12,575 bases of DNA from a virus (lineage: Duplodnaviria; Heunggongvirae; Uroviricota; Caudoviricetes): the IMG/VR virus record IMGVR_UViG_2778261358_000013. One strand, 5' to 3'. Under the pieces are notes generated by a model, which had not been told where the DNA came from, did no database searches, and worked only from the letters and a program-made list of their open reading frames with translations. Each line of letters opens with the position of its first letter. The stretch's first letter is position 1. Position numbers and translations under genes: made by a program. Of this stretch, positions 6,963 through 12,575 are shown in pieces.

Positions 6963-7003
6963 AACATACAACATAATCCCACCTTATTACTCATACCCTT
7001 CTA

Positions 7004-7017
7004 TTGATATGGATTAA
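7004..7017 (+). promoter_or_regulatory. FNR-like half-palindrome TTGAT-N4-ATTAA about 100 bp upstream of ynfE
   Basis: ttgatatggattaa matches the FNR/CRP-family consensus TTGAT-N4-ATCAA with one mismatch. The ynfEFGH operon is anaerobically expressed in E. coli (established); the site assignment is inference. Confidence 0.3.
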
Positions 7018-7116
7018 TAATTCTTAACCCAAAATGGGTAGACTCCCTCTATTGTTAGCGCGCTAAATATTCAATATATAAACATTTATATAACGATAAA
7101 GAACAGGGAGTGAGTT

Positions 7117-8526
7117 ATGTCCAAAAATGACCGAATGGTGGGCATCAGCCGCAGAACACTCGTTAAATCAACCGCGATAGGTTCTCTGGCGCTGGCTGCA
7201 GGCGGTTTTTCTTTACCGTTCACCCTGCGCAGTGCAGCGGCAACGGTACAACAGGCCAGCGAAAAAGTGATCTGGGGTGCCTGTTCCGTCAACTGTGGTA
7301 GCCGCTGTGCACTTCGTCTACATGTTAAAGATAATGAAGTGACCTGGGTGGAAACTGACAATACCGGCAGCGATGAGTACGGCAACCATCAGGTACGCGC
7401 CTGTTTGCGCGGTCGCTCCATCCGCCGGCGTATTAATCATCCCGATCGCTTGAATTACCCAATGAAACGCGTGGGTACACGCGGTGAAGGCAAATTCGAA
7501 CGGATTAGCTGGGATGAAGCCCTGGATACTATCGCCAGTAGCCTGAAAAAAACCGTCGAACAATATGGCAATGAGGCTGTATATATTCAGTACTCTTCGG
7601 GGATTGTTGGCGGCAATATGACCCGCTCTTCGCCATCAGCCTCGGCGGTCAAACGCCTGATGAACTGCTACGGCGGTTCACTCAATCAGTATGGCTCCTA
7701 CAGCACCGCGCAAATTTCCTGTGCCATGCCCTACACCTACGGCAGTAATGATGGCAACAGCACCACGGATATTGAAAACAGCAAGCTGGTCGTGATGTTT
7801 GGTAACAACCCGGCAGAAACCCGCATGAGCGGCGGTGGCATCACTTATCTTCTTGAAAAAGCGCGCGAGAAATCGAACGCCAAAATGATTGTTATCGATC
7901 CGCGATATACCGATACGGCTGCTGGTCGTGAAGATGAATGGCTCCCTATTCGCCCGGGCACCGATGCCGCGCTGGTTGCGGGTATTGCCTGGGTATTGAT
8001 TAACGAAAATCTCGTTGATCAACCTTTTCTCGATAAATACTGCGTCGGCTATGACGAAAAAACCTTACCCGCAGATGCACCCAAAAATGGTCACTATAAA
8101 GCCTATATTCTTGGTGAAGGTGATGATAACACAGCGAAAACGCCGCAGTGGGCTTCGCAAATTACCGGTATCCCGGTAGACCGTATCATCAAACTGGCGC
8201 GTGAAATTGGCACAGCAAAACCCGCTTATATCTGCCAGGGCTGGGGGCCGCAACGCCAGGCAAACGGCGAACTGACTGCACGCGCTATTGCTATGTTACC
8301 TATTTTGACGGGCAATGTCGGCATCAGCGGCGGAAATAGTGGCGCGCGTGAATCGACCTATACCATTACCATAGAACGCCTGCCGGTGCTGGATAATCCG
8401 GTCAAAACGTCAATCTCCTGCTTCAGCTGGACAGATGCTATCGATCATGGTCCGCAAATGACGGCAATCCGCGACGGCGTCCGCGGCAAAGATAAACTGG
8501 ATGTGCCCATTAAGTTCATCTGGAAC
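7117..8526 (+). pseudogene. ynfE: 5-prime portion (~470 codons) of ynfE, molybdopterin oxidoreductase / DMSO-reductase-family catalytic subunit, truncated by foreign DNA
   Basis: Tat signal (MSKNDRMVGISRRTLVKSTAIGSLALAAGG...AAA) and N-terminal Cys cluster (CSVNCGSRCALRLH) typical of DmsA/YnfE-type enzymes. The homologous reading ends at ...DVPIKFIWN (codon ending 8526). The track ORF then runs 22 unrelated codons (FKDLKRLLVRVTRDLSRPEVLH) to a stop at 8593-8595. Full-length proteins of this family are about 800 aa. Confidence 0.8.
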
Positions 8527-8787
8527 TTCAAGGACTTGAAGCGGTTACTCGTTAGAGTCACGAGAGACCTTAGTAGGCCTGAGGTCCTGCATTGAGTCAA
8601 GGACTTTGTGTCATTCTTTGTGCCAGACTTGTGTCATTAGACGGGATTTCTAGACGGCTGGTCAGGACCCCGGTGGCCTCGGTCTGGACTTGAGGCGGGG
8701 CTATGGGGGAAGTCTGCTGGCTTAATGTATTAGATGGTCATTCACATTTTTCTGTCAGAAACCATCGGTCCCACTGTGAGTCCAAAC
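8527..8787 (-). repeat. Non-coding terminal-repeat-like region of the foreign segment, with T7-group-like end motifs on the minus strand
   Basis: No ORF longer than 15 codons on the minus strand. Minus strand carries CTCACAGTG-G-GACC (8767-8780) and TTCCCCCATAG (8701-8711), resembling the first ~35 nt of the T7 terminal repeat (TCTCACAGTGTACGGACCTAAAGTTCCCCCATAGGGGG, from memory). Short direct repeats tcaaggactt (8528, 8596) and gactt(t)gtgtcatt (8600, 8618). Confidence 0.4.
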
Positions 8788-8943
8788 CTAAGCTCCCAGA
8801 AGCCCACCCACAGCCTTAGACAGAGTGTCGAATACATTCACACCGAGTCGACCGGAGAGGACCATATAGAGACCCACAGAGAGGAACACGAGTTTATAGA
8901 CCAGAGTCAGGAGGGACCTTAGGTCTGCGGAAGTCATGGACAT
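8788..8943 (-). CDS. Small single-pass membrane protein (51 aa), hypothetical
   Basis: Hand-translated ORF below the track size cutoff: MSMTSADLRSLLTLVYKLVFLSVGLYMVLSGRLGVNVFDTLSKAVGGLLGA. Strong SD AGGAGG (complement of 8949-8954) 4 nt upstream of ATG 8941-8943. One hydrophobic helix (LLTLVYKLVFLSVGLYMVL). Last ORF before the terminal non-coding region. Confidence 0.45.
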   Translation of the reverse strand: MSMTSADLRSLLTLVYKLVFLSVGLYMVLSGRLGVNVFDTLSKAVGGLLGA

Positions 8944-8996
8944 AAAGCCTCCTTCGTCTATTGTACTACTGCACTAGATAACTAGTACAAAACAAA

Positions 8997-9021
8997 GGTC
9001 CAGACCATTGGTCCAGACCAT
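8997..9021. repeat. Tandem direct repeat 2 x ggtccagaccat (period 13)
   Basis: 8997-9008 and 9010-9021 are identical 12-mers separated by one T, in a 238-bp non-coding gap (8944-9181). Each copy contains the GGTC-NN-GACC palindrome. Confidence 0.6.
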
Positions 9022-9181
9022 AGTTATCATGATGATTGGAACGATTGAACGGTAGGCACTTTACATCTCACCCACTGTTCAGCTTCAGCCAGTGACCAGC
9101 ATAGCCGCTTATAGACTCTGCGTGTCATCCAGATTGTTGCTTGATATCGTCCACCCTCCACAGGCTGTATAGATGTCTTAA

Positions 9182-9421
9182 TCACAGTGACAGGCCACCA
9201 CCTGAAGTCCTGCTGATATTCAGTCCAGACTTACCCCTGCTCATGGTCTTACCTCCCTCGGTCTCATGACCTTGGGTATCGACTACAGCTTGCTGAGCGT
9301 CATCTGGAGGAGCTACAGGAGGAGCTACAGGAGGCGGGACCGAAGCCCCACCTTGAGTCCCACCACCACCTGTCAGGCCCTTGGCGATGGACCTGAAGCC
9401 TTTACTAATGCTCTTACCCAT
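9182..9421 (-). CDS. Hypothetical Gly/Pro/Ala-rich small protein (79 aa), probably disordered
   Basis: ORF begins 5 nt after the stop of the upstream 328-aa gene, with no separate SD (possible translational coupling). Contains GGGGTQGG and PPPVAPPVAPP, the latter encoded by a 12-bp tandem repeat. Low-complexity, so the coding call is tentative. Confidence 0.35.
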   Translation of the reverse strand: MGKSISKGFRSIAKGLTGGGGTQGGASVPPPVAPPVAPPDDAQQAVVDTQGHETEGGKTMSRGKSGLNISRTSGGGLSL

Positions 9422-9426
9422 TGGTC

Positions 9427-10413
9427 TTACGCTTCGGTCTTGGTGAACTTCAGGCGTTTGACTACAGGCAGGACGGCAGTAGCTGAGCCAGTGCCCATCT
9501 TGATGGTCGTAGCAGCTTCAGCGACAACGAACACTTTACCGAGGATTTCCAGAGAGTGAGACTGAGAGTCGCCATCACGTGAAAGGATGACCGTAATATT
9601 CTCGCCATCGTGACGGAAGCAACCGAAGCTAAGAGCCGTAAAACGCTTAGCCATCATGAACACGCCACGGTCTTCACCGTTGTAATACGCAATATCCGTC
9701 CCCAGCATATCGACGATAGCGTCTTCACCACCGAAGCCCTGCTTAGCAGCCAGACGGGAGAGAGCCTTGAGGTGTGACTCATGGGCGATGATACCGTAAT
9801 CAGTAACCTCAGAACCGAAAGAAGATTCGGTGTTGTCATACAGAGCATCCATGATAGCATCTGCCTTAGCGGTCAGGCTGCCAGTCAGGACCGGAAGCTC
9901 TACGGTCTTCAACAGTTTGGAGGACTCCAGAACGTCGACCATGCGAGCGTTGATGGTACGGACCACATTCTCACAGATGTTCATAGCATCCTGCTGAAGT
10001 GTGCCCTGAGTGAATCCGGTGGATGACTTGGCGTCCCAGAGCTTGGTCTGCTCAGAGATGAGAATAGCCCGCTCGATTGGTTCGACCACGATTTCTTGTC
10101 CAGACGGAACGGTCACGACTTCAGGTCGCTTACCACCACGGACAGGAACAACCACAGAGCGGTTAGCCAGAGTGTGAGCAATGATTGGAGTAGGCAGGCT
10201 ATTGCGGGTAGGCAGGACTTCTACAGGGAACGGGATGTTCTCCTGAGCGGATTTCAGAACACCATTCAGCATTGTCTTAACCAGTTTAGCCAGCTCAAAG
10301 GCGTAGACCTGAGGGTCTGCGTTAGTTGGCAATCCTTCGTTAATCTGAATGTTGTCGGTGTCGGTGATACGTACTGGCTCAATGCCGAACTGTAAAGCGT
10401 CTTTAATCGTCAT
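9427..10413 (-). CDS. Hypothetical protein (328 aa), function unknown
   Basis: Long ORF. The track start at 10422 is a TTG; the likely start is ATG 10411-10413 (MTIKDALQFG...) with SD AGGAGA 9 nt upstream. No catalytic or nucleotide-binding motif recognised by eye. Confidence 0.7.
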   Translation of the reverse strand: MTIKDALQFGIEPVRITDTDNIQINEGLPTNADPQVYAFELAKLVKTMLNGVLKSAQENIPFPVEVLPTRNSLPTPIIAHTLANRSVVVPVRGGKRPEVVTVPSGQEIVVEPIERAILISEQTKLWDAKSSTGFTQGTLQQDAMNICENVVRTINARMVDVLESSKLLKTVELPVLTGSLTAKADAIMDALYDNTESSFGSEVTDYGIIAHESHLKALSRLAAKQGFGGEDAIVDMLGTDIAYYNGEDRGVFMMAKRFTALSFGCFRHDGENITVILSRDGDSQSHSLEILGKVFVVAEAATTIKMGTGSATAVLPVVKRLKFTKTEA

Positions 10414-10488
10414 AATAATCAATCTCCTGAATTAGTTTGGATACTGTGGGTCCCGACATCAGGTCAGGACCACTTGTGTGTCTGTGTC

Positions 10489-10980
10489 TTAGAGGCTGTC
10501 CATCCAGTTGTCCGTGGACTCAATGTCAGCGACCATAGAAGCACGGGAGCGCCCAGCGGAATGGGTAGCACTGCGGAGGTGCTCACCATAGGTCCGGCGT
10601 TCAGCTTTGACCTGTTCACGGCGCTGTAGCTCTTTCTGCCACTCTGCATCAGTCATGTTCTCTTCACGCATACGCTCAGCCTGAATGCGCTGCTCTTTAG
10701 CAATACGCTCAGCTTCGGCTCGCTTGTTCTGCTGGCGGCGACCATAGGCGGTCATCAGGTCATTACTGAAGAAGTTACCAATGGTCACGCCAGCTTCAGC
10801 CAGAGCTTCCAGTAACTCCATTGCCTCGCGGCTGGTAGACGGCAGGCCTGACAGGTAGCCCGGAATGAGGGTCTTGATAGCGAGCGACAGCGGATAGGGC
10901 TGACCATCCAGACTCACAGTATTCTCGTAGAGATTGATGTCGGTGACTGACAGTTTCCAGTCTTGGTTATTGAATAACAT
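10489..10980 (-). CDS. Hypothetical protein (163 aa) with charged Arg/Glu/Gln-rich predicted helical segment
   Basis: SD AGGAG 8 nt upstream of ATG 10978-10980. Central segment QQNKRAEAERIAKEQRIQAERMREENMTDAEWQKELQRREQVKAERR is typical of a coiled coil or single alpha-helix domain. Confidence 0.65.
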   Translation of the reverse strand: MLFNNQDWKLSVTDINLYENTVSLDGQPYPLSLAIKTLIPGYLSGLPSTSREAMELLEALAEAGVTIGNFFSNDLMTAYGRRQQNKRAEAERIAKEQRIQAERMREENMTDAEWQKELQRREQVKAERRTYGEHLRSATHSAGRSRASMVADIESTDNWMDSL

Positions 10981-11079
10981 AGTAATTACTCCTCTTGAGA
11001 GTTGAGACTATCGGTCAACCACAGGCGTGTTCAGTCCTGCGGCGTCTCCCCGCATCGGTCATCTCAAAAGGTGTTTAAA

Positions 11080-11262
11080 TTAGGCAGACAGTTTCATAGA
11101 GACCAGTTGCGCTATTAGCTCGTCTCGTGATTGGTGCTGGCGGGTCTCATCTTCTGGGTCCAGACCTAGCTCCTTCAGGATGACTTCAGTCCGGTAGCCA
11201 CGGTAACGGAGAGTCATGCGACCCTCAGGTGTGCGTGGGTCGATATGTTGTTTAGTTGTCAT
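11080..11262 (-). CDS. Hypothetical small protein (60 aa)
   Basis: ATG 11260-11262 lies 2 nt after the TAA stop of the upstream 84-aa gene, with SD GAGGA 9 nt upstream. Same strand and codon style as its neighbours. Confidence 0.5.
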   Translation of the reverse strand: MTTKQHIDPRTPEGRMTLRYRGYRTEVILKELGLDPEDETRQHQSRDELIAQLVSMKLSA

Positions 11263-11264
11263 TG

Positions 11265-11519
11265 TTAGAAGTCCTCGTTAGACCAATCATCCACGTCAAA
11301 TTCACTGGTGATAGGTGCTTGGAAGTTAGGTAGACCCTCTGGTATCTCTAGAGGCAGTCGCTCGTCGATTCTCAGTGCCATCTCTTCGTATATATGCCGA
11401 AGCAGAGAAGTCAGTAAGATAGGGTCCACAGGATGCTCAGGGCCGTGTCTCTCAATGAAGCACATGGTTGTCGCTATTGACTCCATAATCAGTTCATCAG
11501 TGAGTCGCTTAGAACCCAT
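11265..11519 (-). CDS. Strongly acidic small protein (84 aa) with acidic C-terminal tail ending in Phe (...EFDVDDWSNEDF)
   Basis: The track ORF is 101 aa from ATG 11570, but the likely start is ATG 11517-11519 (MGSKRLTDELIMES...), which overlaps the last codons of the upstream 281-aa gene (sequence ctATGGGTTCTAAgcg; stop at 11509-11511) as in translational coupling. About 18 Asp/Glu against 6 Lys/Arg. Confidence 0.55.
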   Translation of the reverse strand: MGSKRLTDELIMESIATTMCFIERHGPEHPVDPILLTSLLRHIYEEMALRIDERLPLEIPEGLPNFQAPITSEFDVDDWSNEDF

Positions 11520-12354
11520 AGTCGGACCCCTTGCCCGCTGCTGCTTTCTGGGACTTTGTAGCCTTACCATTCAGGTGAGAATCCACCAGACGACGGACAA
11601 CCTTGATATTGGATGTGCGCATGTCATGAGCGATATCCTTCCAGTTATCCTTCAGCCAGTCATAACCCTTGCGTAGAATCTTGATGGTAGGCTCTTTGTC
11701 GTTAGGCTGTGGCTGTAGACGATAGTAGCCGTTGATCTCACCTTTCTTATTGAAGATGGCTCGTGGACGTCCGGTCGATAGGTCTATAGCCGTAATGCCA
11801 AACTCAGTAACACGCTTGGTGTAGAATGGGTTAGGACGACACAGGGTCTTCAGATATCCAGTCAGGACGCTAGCTGTCAGCAGCTTAGAGCTGGTCAACT
11901 TAAGGTCCAGAGCTTTAATAACCTCGGTAGGCGTGGCTCCTGACTTGGAGTCCAGCTTGGAGTCGAGGACGATAGCACCGGGCGCATAGCTGATAGCTTT
12001 AGTCTGTGCAACCTGAAGTTTCTGGGCCTGAAGTTCGAGGACCTCTTGCTCCTTCTGGCGAATATAGGCTAGGACCTTACGACGCACAGCTTTAGACTCA
12101 CGCATCCCGACTAGTAGAAGCTGGTCAGTGTTGAGGGTATAGCTTTTAACGTCCTTCCCGAAGCTTACGAAAATTTCGTAGGTCACATTTTGACCTTCCA
12201 GCTCATCCTCAATACGGGACACAAAGTCGTTATTACGGACAGGCTTCTCCCCCGCTTCTTCACGAGCCGGATTAATAACCTTGGTTAGAAAATCGTGGGA
12301 GGTCATAGACACAAGCTGGTCGAGGTTAATGATGCTAATTTCTTTGGATGACAT
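11509..12354 (-). CDS. Hypothetical protein (281 aa), function unknown
   Basis: Long ORF with SD AAGGAG 9 nt upstream of ATG 12352-12354. Lys/Arg-rich C-terminus. No motif recognised by eye. First gene of the minus-strand run visible in the window. Confidence 0.7.
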   Translation of the reverse strand: MSSKEISIINLDQLVSMTSHDFLTKVINPAREEAGEKPVRNNDFVSRIEDELEGQNVTYEIFVSFGKDVKSYTLNTDQLLLVGMRESKAVRRKVLAYIRQKEQEVLELQAQKLQVAQTKAISYAPGAIVLDSKLDSKSGATPTEVIKALDLKLTSSKLLTASVLTGYLKTLCRPNPFYTKRVTEFGITAIDLSTGRPRAIFNKKGEINGYYRLQPQPNDKEPTIKILRKGYDWLKDNWKDIAHDMRTSNIKVVRRLVDSHLNGKATKSQKAAAGKGSDYGF

Positions 12355-12496
12355 ATCGTTGTACTCCTTTTGTTATGCCTCCTGAAGTCACACCCTGAAA
12401 GCCTACTCAAGCCCCCAACGATAGGGAGACTCACAGGCAACAGGAGACATACAGAAAGACTTGAGGTAATAAGGTCGTGTGAAGACCATAGTTGAT

Positions 12497-12534
12497 AAGT
12501 AAGCGTCAACGGAGCACCGTATTGACGCTTATTT
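12497..12534. promoter_or_regulatory. Strong inverted repeat / stem-loop upstream of the 281-aa gene (candidate processing site, terminator or operator)
   Basis: Perfect 10-bp inverted repeat taagcgtcaa (12500-12509) / ttgacgctta (12522-12531) around a 12-nt centre that itself pairs cgg/ccg. Flanked by aataaataa on one side. Lies ~150 bp upstream of the 281-aa start. Confidence 0.4.
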
Positions 12535-12575
12535 ATTAGTGAGTACTACGTTCCATGGCAGGAGTTCGTCAACTC

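Follow-up and report, generated by a model that had tools for sequence, protein, structure and literature searches.

An integrative element in ynfE

The DNA analysed here is a window of 12,575 nucleotides from the IMG/VR virus record IMGVR_UViG_2778261358_000013 (Caudoviricetes), in which the 5' part of ynfE (7117..8527, + strand), coding for an A subunit of the DMSO/selenate reductase family, is interrupted by an insertion and its open reading frame (ORF) continues into foreign DNA. Judged by complete copies in bacterial genomes, positions 8513-12497 are the left, attL-proximal two-thirds of a small integrative element (6.1-6.8 kb and about 10 ORFs when complete), which we regard as a probable satellite of virulent T7-group phages. 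Megablast of positions 7000-12575 against 5,426 complete E. coli genomes found the junction between ynfE and the element to be contiguous in many of them, with 93-95% identity, and the identical junction was also contiguous in metagenome contigs. In strain 47-1826 (locus L001) a 6,608-bp unit splits ynfE, after which ynfE resumes; besides orthologues of the window ORFs the unit contains an ORF of 122 aa and a tyrosine integrase of 540 aa (PF00589), and PGAP calls the matching ynfE, beside ynfD, 'incomplete; missing C-terminus'. A 15-bp direct repeat, AGTTCATCTGGAACT, is found at both element ends in L001 and L097, and in the window this identity segment common to attL and attR lies at 8513..8527 (no strand). 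As the core is present at both ends and the junction recurs in genomes, the join with ynfE is, by this comparison, the attL of an insertion by site-specific recombination, and neither a phage end nor a chimera; in full copies the repeated core is accompanied by a gene for a tyrosine integrase. A preliminary description of this DNA had placed the physical end of a linear phage genome exactly at this join, should 8527-8780 be a terminal repeat; the join instead proved to be a recombination site. The gene ynfE has already been listed among those interrupted by integrative elements, with no further characterisation (Mageeney et al., 2020; PMC7192596).

The window copy ends at 12497, just upstream of a gene for a 281-aa protein, where the end of an IS66-family insertion sequence (IS; ISEc23/ISEc43-like, 12498..12575, no strand) begins, and its promoter-integrase half is therefore displaced beyond the window. 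This IS end was the only part of the window that megablast matched to phages. In L001 the promoters described below, the 122-aa gene and int are all upstream of the point matching the IS insertion of the window, and the copy cut by IS66 is probably no longer inducible. Other copies were hit by IS3/IS1203, IS421 or, in the Citrobacter freundii locus L135, IS66. In strain 47-1826 the element is followed by a ynfE fragment of ~390 bp and then by a Mu-like prophage with tail, baseplate and head genes (L001:28121-45131); as this prophage is a second, unrelated insertion, ynfE is disrupted twice in this strain.

Capsid and virion genes

The gene at 9427..10413 (- strand; 328 aa from ATG, 331 from a TTG at 10422) encodes a major capsid protein with the HK97 fold, comprising N-arm, E-loop, spine helix and P and A domains, and without sequence similarity to gp10 of T7-group phages. 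Directly upstream (10489..10980, - strand) a 163-aa protein related to DUF6971 is encoded at the position of a scaffold gene; it consists of an N-terminal alpha/beta domain, a long helical hairpin and a flexible tail ending in an invariant NWMDSL, and DUF6971 was recorded for its orthologues in L134 and L136. By position and shape it may be a scaffold. Among the genomes H14, H15, H87, H90, H94 and H105, PGAP annotates one element ORF variously as 'peptidase M16 family protein' or 'hypothetical protein'; the peptidase label is probably spurious and given to the capsid protein or the protein beside it.

On the other side of the capsid gene (9182..9421, - strand) lies a gene for a 79-aa homologue of T7-group gp7.3, the virion 'host range and adsorption' protein (PHROG 1320, E=3e-11, full length). 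Comparison with gp7.3 of Kayfunavirus gave E=7e-12 with phmmer and 40% identity over the full length with BLASTP, and both proteins start with MGKSISK... and end with ...SRTSGGG(L/I)S(L/I). The match to Pfam VirionAssem_T7 (PF11653) was weak (17.7 bits, under the curated cut-off of 25), and tblastn against phages gave no match with this short, low-complexity query. Genes for an RNA polymerase, replication, a portal, a terminase or a tail were not found among the element ORFs with Pfam and PHROGs, and there is no room for one. A unit of 6.1-6.8 kb lacking all these, compared to genomes of about 38-41 kb in T7-group phages, is not an integrated T7-like phage, as had also been considered; the remark that the gene order differs from that of the T7 right end was correct.

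A relative of the T7-group concatemer junction beside attL

To obtain an unbiased statistic, queries were built only from phage junctions and searched against the whole 12.6-kb window. All top nhmmer matches were located at 8787-8676 (- strand), with E=7.8e-6 for K1F, 8.3e-5 for EcoDS1 and 2.2e-3 for T7, and blastn with phage-only queries led to the same place and strand (K1F 4e-6, EcoDS1 1e-5, T7 1e-3). The alignment to T7-group termini suspected in the preliminary description is thus significant. When 8520-8800 was searched at low stringency against 50,697 phage records, only weak matches were obtained (E 0.08-3), nearly all to Autographiviridae of 39-41 kb. Four of these were inspected (the Foetvirus phages P1723 and SRT7, the Ningirsuvirus JA10 and the T7-like Bas102), and all fell, with matching orientation, in the gap of non-coding DNA that separates the large terminase gene from gene 0.3. 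In T7-group phages this gap is the region of the concatemer junction and terminal repeat (TR).

In the alignments, nucleotide 1 of the phage TR (Kayfunavirus and T7; the EcoDS1 reference was the annotated 178-nt repeat) corresponds to window position 8734, where the element reads TCTAATACAT, and similarity is strongest in the first ~60-70 nt. From there to the att core extends the left part of a TR-like unit (8528..8734, - strand), as delimited by the alignments with EcoDS1, K1F and T7. It contains the conserved T7-group motif TTCCCCCATAG (8701..8711, - strand), starting at repeat nt 24, the same offset as in T7 and P1723, followed by AGTCCAGACC (8681-8690, - strand), which is common to Kayfunavirus too. 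The repeat start is preceded by GGGACCGATGGTTTCTGACAGAAAAATGTGAATGACCA (8735..8772, - strand), the homologue of phage ...GACGATGAGTTTTGGACCAAAAGTTTGAGACCACA/ and T7 ...CCATAAAAATCTGAGTGACTA/ (the slash marks the boundary), with EcoDS1 aligning as GGGACGATGAGTTTTGGACCAAAAGTTTGAGACCACA/, and terminase would presumably cut between 8735 and 8734. The hallmark of the junction, a pre-repeat followed by the repeat start (…AAAAATCTGAG…A/TCT…) and the conserved motif at about nt 24, is hence present, and the alignments indicate that this stretch is related to the TR/concatemer-junction region of T7-group phages. The pre-repeat skeleton was found again in the divergent element lineages L024, L090, L091, L135 and L134. 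All 14 junction versions have the motif skeleton, with the bases in between varying by lineage; CCCC(A/G)TAGCC formed part of the pattern by which these 14 versions were collected.

The preliminary description had compared CTCACAGTGGGACC (8767-8780) and TTCCCCCATAG (8701-8711) on the - strand with the first nucleotides of the T7 TR. Both are located there, the T7 left-end sequence quoted for the comparison agrees with T7, and the ~255 bp of non-coding DNA correspond to about 256 nt up to the ynfE join. Of the resemblance itself, TTCCCCCATAG is homologous and the alignments are above chance, whereas CTCACAGTG (8767-8780) is not a homologue of the terminus: in the alignment register the noted string ggaCTCACAGTGgGACC (8767..8783, - strand) is inside the pre-repeat region. 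CTCACAGTG as the genome end was accordingly rejected, being about 35-45 nt upstream of the repeat start. Nor does 8527-8780 represent the TR, since 8734 is the first position of the repeat-like unit, which extends across att and has its right-boundary motif outside the window. A direct copy of 8527-8780 at the far end of the element was not found, only short common motifs, and the two ends thus carry no identical terminal repeats. A right boundary within the window at GGTCTCTCGTGACTCT/AACGAG, giving a 'repeat' of 181 nt against 178 nt in Kayfunavirus, was rejected as well, since it depends on a 23-nt insertion, TCTCTCGTGACTCTAACGAGTAA (8545..8567, - strand), that is private to the window copy and absent from L001, L027 and L039 in the multiple alignment.

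Promoters for phage RNA polymerases in full copies

A repeat search of L001 led to two T7-type promoters on the coding strand, P1 and P2 (GGACTTGATTATCACTATAGGGGAACC and ACCCTAAACTATCACTATAGGGAGACC), which flank the 122-aa gene upstream of everything in the window; the 45 kb of L001 contain no further such site, and hence none outside the element. The promoters of the full copies follow the 23-bp consensus of the T7 type, in which the core from -7 to +6 (CACTATAGGGAGA) is conserved and positions -12 to -8 vary with the genus. Their consensus, CT(A/T)AACTATCACTATAGGGAGA, departs from T7 at specificity positions and is identical to the consensus of all promoters in the genomes of one phage group of ~39-40 kb, Kayfunavirus (SH3, GA2A, ST31, EcoDS1, CR44b and K1F relatives). 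As the IS cuts the window copy, the window itself gave 0 promoter matches at up to 3 mismatches. Many copies have tandem promoter pairs of two specificities, 27-31 nt apart. The second type, AAACCCTCACTATAGGG, is the consensus of phages like Cronobacter phage GW1, close relatives of Kayfunavirus, and another, AAACCCACACTATAGGG, resembles Foetvirus promoters.

Tandem pairs, for example AAACCCTCACTATAGGG followed by TTAACTATCACTATAGGG, were located about 3.1-3.9 kb upstream of the junction mimic in L093, L095, L098, L104-L107, L111, L118 and L120. At L134:5575-5622 and L092 ~2545-2608, a few hundred bases at most downstream of a phage-type promoter, AACTTAAAG or GACTTAAAGCTACA forms short tandem arrays reminiscent of the CTTAAAG/CCTAAAG repeats close to the left end of T7. 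Between int and the first phage-type promoter, only ynfE-type copies have two to three tandem repeats of 83 nt (L001:26026-26225; also L097), each with TTGACATCC...GTGAGTCACATCC and an A+T-rich stretch; these could be an origin, iterons or host promoters.

A putative right boundary and the geometry across att

The TR of Kayfunavirus ends with ...GAGTCTCT/ATCTGTAT in K1F and EcoDS1, annotated 'concatemeric junction' in the latter, so that CTCT/ATCTGTAT corresponds to CCCT/ATCTGTT at the T7 right boundary (...GTGTCCCT/ATCTGTT). In T7 this ATCTGTT, with which the junction ends on the right, is the class II pause/termination signal (10.1101/2021.01.11.426313; 10.64898/2026.02.12.705533). As a candidate counterpart the element has GTCTCCCT/ATCTGTAT outside the window, beyond att and ~120 nt from att at the other element end. 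As GTCTCCCT/ATCTGTA(T/C) this right-boundary motif occurs in every int-containing copy of both integrase types, and GTCTCCCTATCTGTA(T/C) was found in 22 copies with two integrase types that are only ~30% identical. It is situated at non-homologous int positions, ~70 nt into the gene in one type and ~510 nt in the other, and its presence at both favours a constraint at the DNA level.

In the integrated state the left boundary is ~185-207 nt inside attL and the right-boundary motif ~120 nt inside attR. The motif and the repeat start being separated by att, a complete junction would exist only after excision, when an attP circle would unite both boundaries as a unit of ~323 nt (ynfE type) or ~874 nt (tRNA-Gly type). 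The order would then be promoter, genes, last small gene, left boundary, repeat and pause motif, as for phiOR, gene 19.5, TR and pause site in T7. Three T7-group cis signals, the promoters, the pre-repeat with repeat start, and the putative right-boundary motif with its class II-type ATCTGTA, have phage order and orientation. A second class II-like ATCTGTT site within the element is contained in a 15-nt exact match, ATCTGTTAGTAGCTC, between L001 ~25394-25408 (- strand) and L003 ~441-455, which is downstream of P2 in the element and immediately right of the terminal repeat in Dickeya phage JA10.

Distribution and distant relatives

The element family was found in 312 of the 5,426 complete E. 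coli genomes, always on the chromosome and at several loci; strains 47-1826 (NZ_CP184839) and UMNK88 (NC_017641) are examples with an intact ynfE copy. Other lineages insert at the 3' end of tRNA-Gly instead of ynfE, and metagenome contigs contain further integrated copies at both sites. The junction pattern is also present in species representatives of Citrobacter and Buttiauxella, and the 163-aa protein in Enterobacter, Salmonella, Kluyvera, Yersinia and Photorhabdus. Distant relatives of the capsid protein, all of them anonymous chromosomal proteins, occur in Serratia, Erwinia/Pantoea, Tatumella, Kluyvera and Pseudomonas. In the Serratia locus L134, with a capsid protein of ~29% identity, int is followed by a perfect T7 promoter (TAATACGACTCACTATAGGGAG), Rha, DUF6971 and the capsid gene; CCCTTTAAGAATCCTACAGAAAAATCTGAGTGCCTATC...TTTCCCCCCATATGG precedes a tRNA-like att core by about 290 nt, and int itself contains GTGTCCTTATCTGTAA. 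In the C. freundii locus L135, where the capsid protein is ~44% identical, the tandem promoters differ in specificity from those above, and a junction mimic is present along with GTCTCCCTATCTGTAT as right-boundary motif. A conserved architecture with changing promoter specificity fits lineages that each track a local T7-like helper. In L091 (SRR29836470) and the metagenome contigs L092-L118 the assemblies break 14-44 nt past the att core on both sides; occupied and empty sites could coexist there, from strain mixtures or from excision.

Other genes and sequence features

The last gene before the junction mimic encodes a hydrophobic, probably membrane-bound protein of 51 aa (8788..8943, - strand), which is conserved in L027 and L084 and has no family match; as a homologue of T7-group gp19.5 it was rejected, with alignment scores at shuffle level. 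The remaining genes, likewise on the - strand, are a 52-aa ORF conserved in L084 (9027..9185), a 60-aa protein conserved even in the distant L059 with 52% identity (11080..11262), a protein of 84-101 aa with no family match in Pfam or PHROG (11265..11570) and the 281-aa protein (11509..12354), the N-terminal region of which is anti-repressor (Ant)-like by PHROG matches. The slot of the latter is variable, with KilA-N in L001 and Rha in other genomes and in L134. In one tRNA-Gly-type copy a 217-aa DUF4145 gene directly follows int (L090:1765-2418), a position that may be a slot for accessory, defence-type cargo.

The GACACAA(A)G motifs repeated at 8606..8635 (- strand) recur close to attR of full copies (in L001 as repeat families D4 and D8 at both ends) and are candidate arm-type sites of the integrase. 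The 5' leader of the 281-aa/KilA-N gene contains CTGTGAGTCTCCCTATCG (12419..12436, - strand; L001:25059-25075, repeat family D6), which is similar to the left half of GAGTCTCT/ATCTGTAT, the motif at the right boundary of the repeat, and then continues differently. A scan of the orthologous L001 region pointed to a terminator-like structure, a G+C-rich hairpin followed by a T run, at 8997..9019 (- strand). Known RNA families were not found in 8400-12575, and a scan of the element for sigma-70 promoters and terminators gave counts at chance level.

A probable satellite of T7-group phages and the alternatives

In having an integrase and att sites of its own but no full set of virion genes, the integrated element corresponds to a satellite, and with a probability of roughly 0.7 we interpret it as a satellite of virulent T7-group phages, chiefly Kayfunavirus (K1F-like). 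From its integration anatomy, gene content and sequence mimicry as described above, we infer induction, excision, packaging and transfer as follows. Upon infection by a helper, the RNA polymerase of the latter would transcribe the element from the phage-type promoters, with tandem promoters of two specificities widening the range of helpers. Excision and circularisation would join attL and attR to a complete junction-like unit (~323 nt in the ynfE type). As the element has no replication genes of its own, the helper replisome would be needed to copy it into concatemers, priming at the promoters of phage type in the manner of laboratory plasmids that contain the origin and the junction of T7. 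Helper terminase would then recognise and cut the mimic junction, and the DNA would be packaged in capsids built from, or resized by, the capsid protein of the element, on helper portal, core and tail. After injection the integrase, encoded by the first gene behind the repeat, would insert the element into ynfE. A rough volume scaling of our own from T7 (T=7, 40 kb) suggests T=3, ahead of T=1 or T=4, as the shell that suits the unit plus repeat (6.4-7.7 kb) best. Packaging of six copies per T7-size head was considered and dropped: 6 x L001 gives 39.6 kb, and the sizes of 6.1-6.8 kb give 36.8-41.0 kb, which is uninformative.

Several observations weigh against this interpretation. Excision, replication, packaging and transfer are deduced from sequences, and neither an attP nor a circular or linear free form was detected among Logan, ENA and JGI contigs of 6.2-6.9 kb, the stand-alone contigs of this size all being integrated copies with short flanks. 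An excisionase was not identified, and the integrated int is located upstream of the phage-type promoters, both of which are difficulties for the triggering of the proposed excision. The repeat starts with TCTAATACA in the element and with TCTCACAG in phages, and in view of this difference cleavage by helper terminase is hypothetical; the implied repeat-like unit (~323 or ~874 nt) also exceeds the Kayfunavirus repeats (178 nt). With the phage right-boundary region nhmmer gave no significant result, the match being too short for an alignment statistic. Promoter type AGCACTCACTATAGGG has no counterpart among the phages of IMG/VR, pointing to a helper that has not yet been sampled. The fold search of the 163-aa protein was uninformative and gave no backing for a role as scaffold. 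Finally, as the element is portal-less and its capsid protein unrelated in sequence to gp10, this protein would have to be cross-compatible with helper portal and scaffold.

Among the other explanations the one that survives best, although unlikely, is an immobile defence or decoy island, in which promoters for the phage polymerase switch on genes against T7-group phages and the junction mimic titrates terminase, with no packaging or transfer. Promoters specific to the polymerase of an invader would be an ideal sensor of infection, and the variable slot with KilA-N, Rha and Ant-like genes, the DUF4145 gene in one copy and the failure to detect a free form in public contigs would all suit such an island; known satellites interfere with their helpers too, and in this respect both explanations overlap. 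Nevertheless, a conserved integrase and intact att repeats at several sites and in several genera argue for ongoing horizontal mobility, a capsid protein with its partner in scaffold position has been kept down to <30% identity, and junction signals in phage order and orientation, split across att, are hard to explain without packaging.

Less probable still is a decayed temperate T7-like prophage of which the end, the capsid gene and the integrase are the only survivors. It would account for the T7-group cis signals and the gp7.3 gene and for the IS insertions in several copies, and integrase-carrying relatives of T7-like phages are discussed in the literature (in a reference cited in PMC9618062). 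Random decay, however, would not converge on a compact gene set of 6.1-6.8 kb with intact att repeats in hundreds of genomes and several genera, and searches with Pfam and PHROGs detected no remains of genes for an RNA or DNA polymerase, a portal, a tail or a terminase. The capsid protein lacks sequence similarity to T7-group gp10, and the promoters are swapped or doubled to fit different phage polymerases, which indicates selection for responding to an external polymerase.

An assembly chimera of a linear T7-like phage end and ynfE, as considered in the preliminary description, would account for foreign DNA that starts abruptly inside a conserved gene and includes a phage-terminus-like sequence, but can be dismissed, since the identical join is contiguous in many independent complete genomes and metagenome assemblies, coincides with a 15-bp core repeated at the other end and is 207 nt away from the homologue of the phage terminus. 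A chance resemblance of the non-coding stretch to T7 sequences, suggested by weak single database matches (E 0.08-3) and the mis-registration of one of the two noted motifs, is just as negligible in view of E-values of 1e-5 to 1e-6 from phage-only queries, matches that are co-located and co-oriented, the independent T7-group features that the element also has, namely its promoters, its gp7.3 gene and a motif of class II type, and replication of the pattern in the distant relatives from Serratia and C. freundii.

Returning to the proposed satellite of T7-group phages, we consider a more far-reaching joint proposal slightly more likely than not: that these are the first recognised satellites of virulent T7-group phages and the smallest capsid-encoding mobile element with an identified helper. 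Infection would be sensed via promoters for the single-subunit RNA polymerase of the helper, with tandem specificities broadening the helper range; the junction mimic, split by att, would become a packaging substrate only once excised; small, perhaps T=3, capsids would be assembled on a borrowed portal, core and tail; and relatives across Enterobacterales, possibly also in Pseudomonas, would be tuned to local T7-like phages.

Significance and comparison with known systems

In textbooks T7 and its relatives stand for the 'autonomous' virulent phage, and they are leading candidates for therapy. If the proposed satellite exists, about 6% of complete E. coli genomes carry a parasite able to sense and exploit T7-group phages, with further carriers in Shigella, Salmonella, Enterobacter, Citrobacter and Serratia, which would bear on the efficacy of phage therapy, horizontal gene transfer and host range. 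It would also introduce a new principle of induction, by which tandem promoters of dual specificity sense the RNA polymerase that is private to a helper, and a packaging signal armed by excision, and it would offer a tractable case for the nature of HK97-fold 'twilight' genomes below 11.6 kb and for the minimum size of a DNA-filled HK97 capsid. The natural promoter variants are a ready catalogue of orthogonal promoters for phage polymerases.

Cos-packaged PICIs of the SaPIbov5 type (Staphylococcus aureus) have a copy of the helper packaging site and an HK97-fold Ccm that leads to small capsids, and no terminase or tail genes of their own. The element resembles them as an integrated, probable satellite with a mimic of the helper packaging site and an HK97-fold capsid homologue and without terminase or tail genes, and structure 7rwz appeared in the comparison of the capsid protein. 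The helpers of SaPIbov5, however, are temperate cos siphophages, whereas virulent T7-group podophages are proposed here; its signal is a cos site instead of a TR junction split across att; it is induced by de-repression (Stl), in contrast to the proposed promoters for the helper's polymerase; and it has about 14 kb compared to 6-7 kb. P4 (11.6 kb) depends on the temperate helper P2, resizes the helper capsid with Sid and replicates with its own primase-helicase. It is, as proposed for the element, an integrative satellite of Enterobacterales with a helper-type packaging site, late promoters that answer to helper factors and a smaller capsid, but P4 reshapes the helper capsid through Sid while the element encodes a capsid protein. 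Functions of the P4 type (Sid/Psu, delta, alpha primase-helicase, P2-type cos) had no PHROG or Pfam match among the element ORFs; models of the SatelliteFinder type were not run.

The cf-PICIs have a complete head and packaging module (portal, protease, connectors and terminase) and take only tails, from temperate phages. They are similar to the element, as interpreted here, in being satellites of Enterobacterales that encode an HK97-fold major head protein and obtain the remaining virion parts from a helper, and PDB 9gyi (cf-PICI, e.g. EcCI2) was likewise found in the capsid comparison. The element, though, has only the capsid protein, the protein in scaffold position and gp7.3 and neither portal nor terminase, so that, unlike cf-PICIs, it would have to borrow portal, terminase, core and tail. 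Satellites of virulent phages are represented by the minimalist islands of Vibrio, PICMI, which are tiny (about 6 kb) with reduced gene content (PMC10803314), and by PLE of Vibrio cholerae (PMC7145576). Their helpers are myophages, in contrast to the T7-group phages proposed here, and neither has been reported with helper-polymerase promoters or a TR-junction mimic. The metagenomic 'twilight-zone' mini genomes with an HK97 fold, 5-11.6 kb in size, for which a satellite lifestyle was suggested (bioRxiv 10.1101/2025.06.18.659913), share the size of about 7 kb, the HK97-fold capsid gene, the integrase and the lack of portal, terminase and tail genes; compared by description, they differ as anonymous contigs with their own replication genes and no identified helper or cis signals.

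A full-text literature search gave no description of a satellite of T7-group or Kayfunavirus phages. Chung and Hinkle are said to have observed in 1990 that a T7 promoter/origin and one junction on a circle are enough for replication and packaging in T7 particles on infection. Such laboratory plasmids are artificial, have no integrase, capsid gene or gp7.3 and are packaged as ~40-kb concatemers in normal heads, but they follow the same minimal cis logic as proposed for the element. The element most likely belongs to a new satellite family with a new class of helper and a new cis logic, which nonetheless resembles the satellites known so far.

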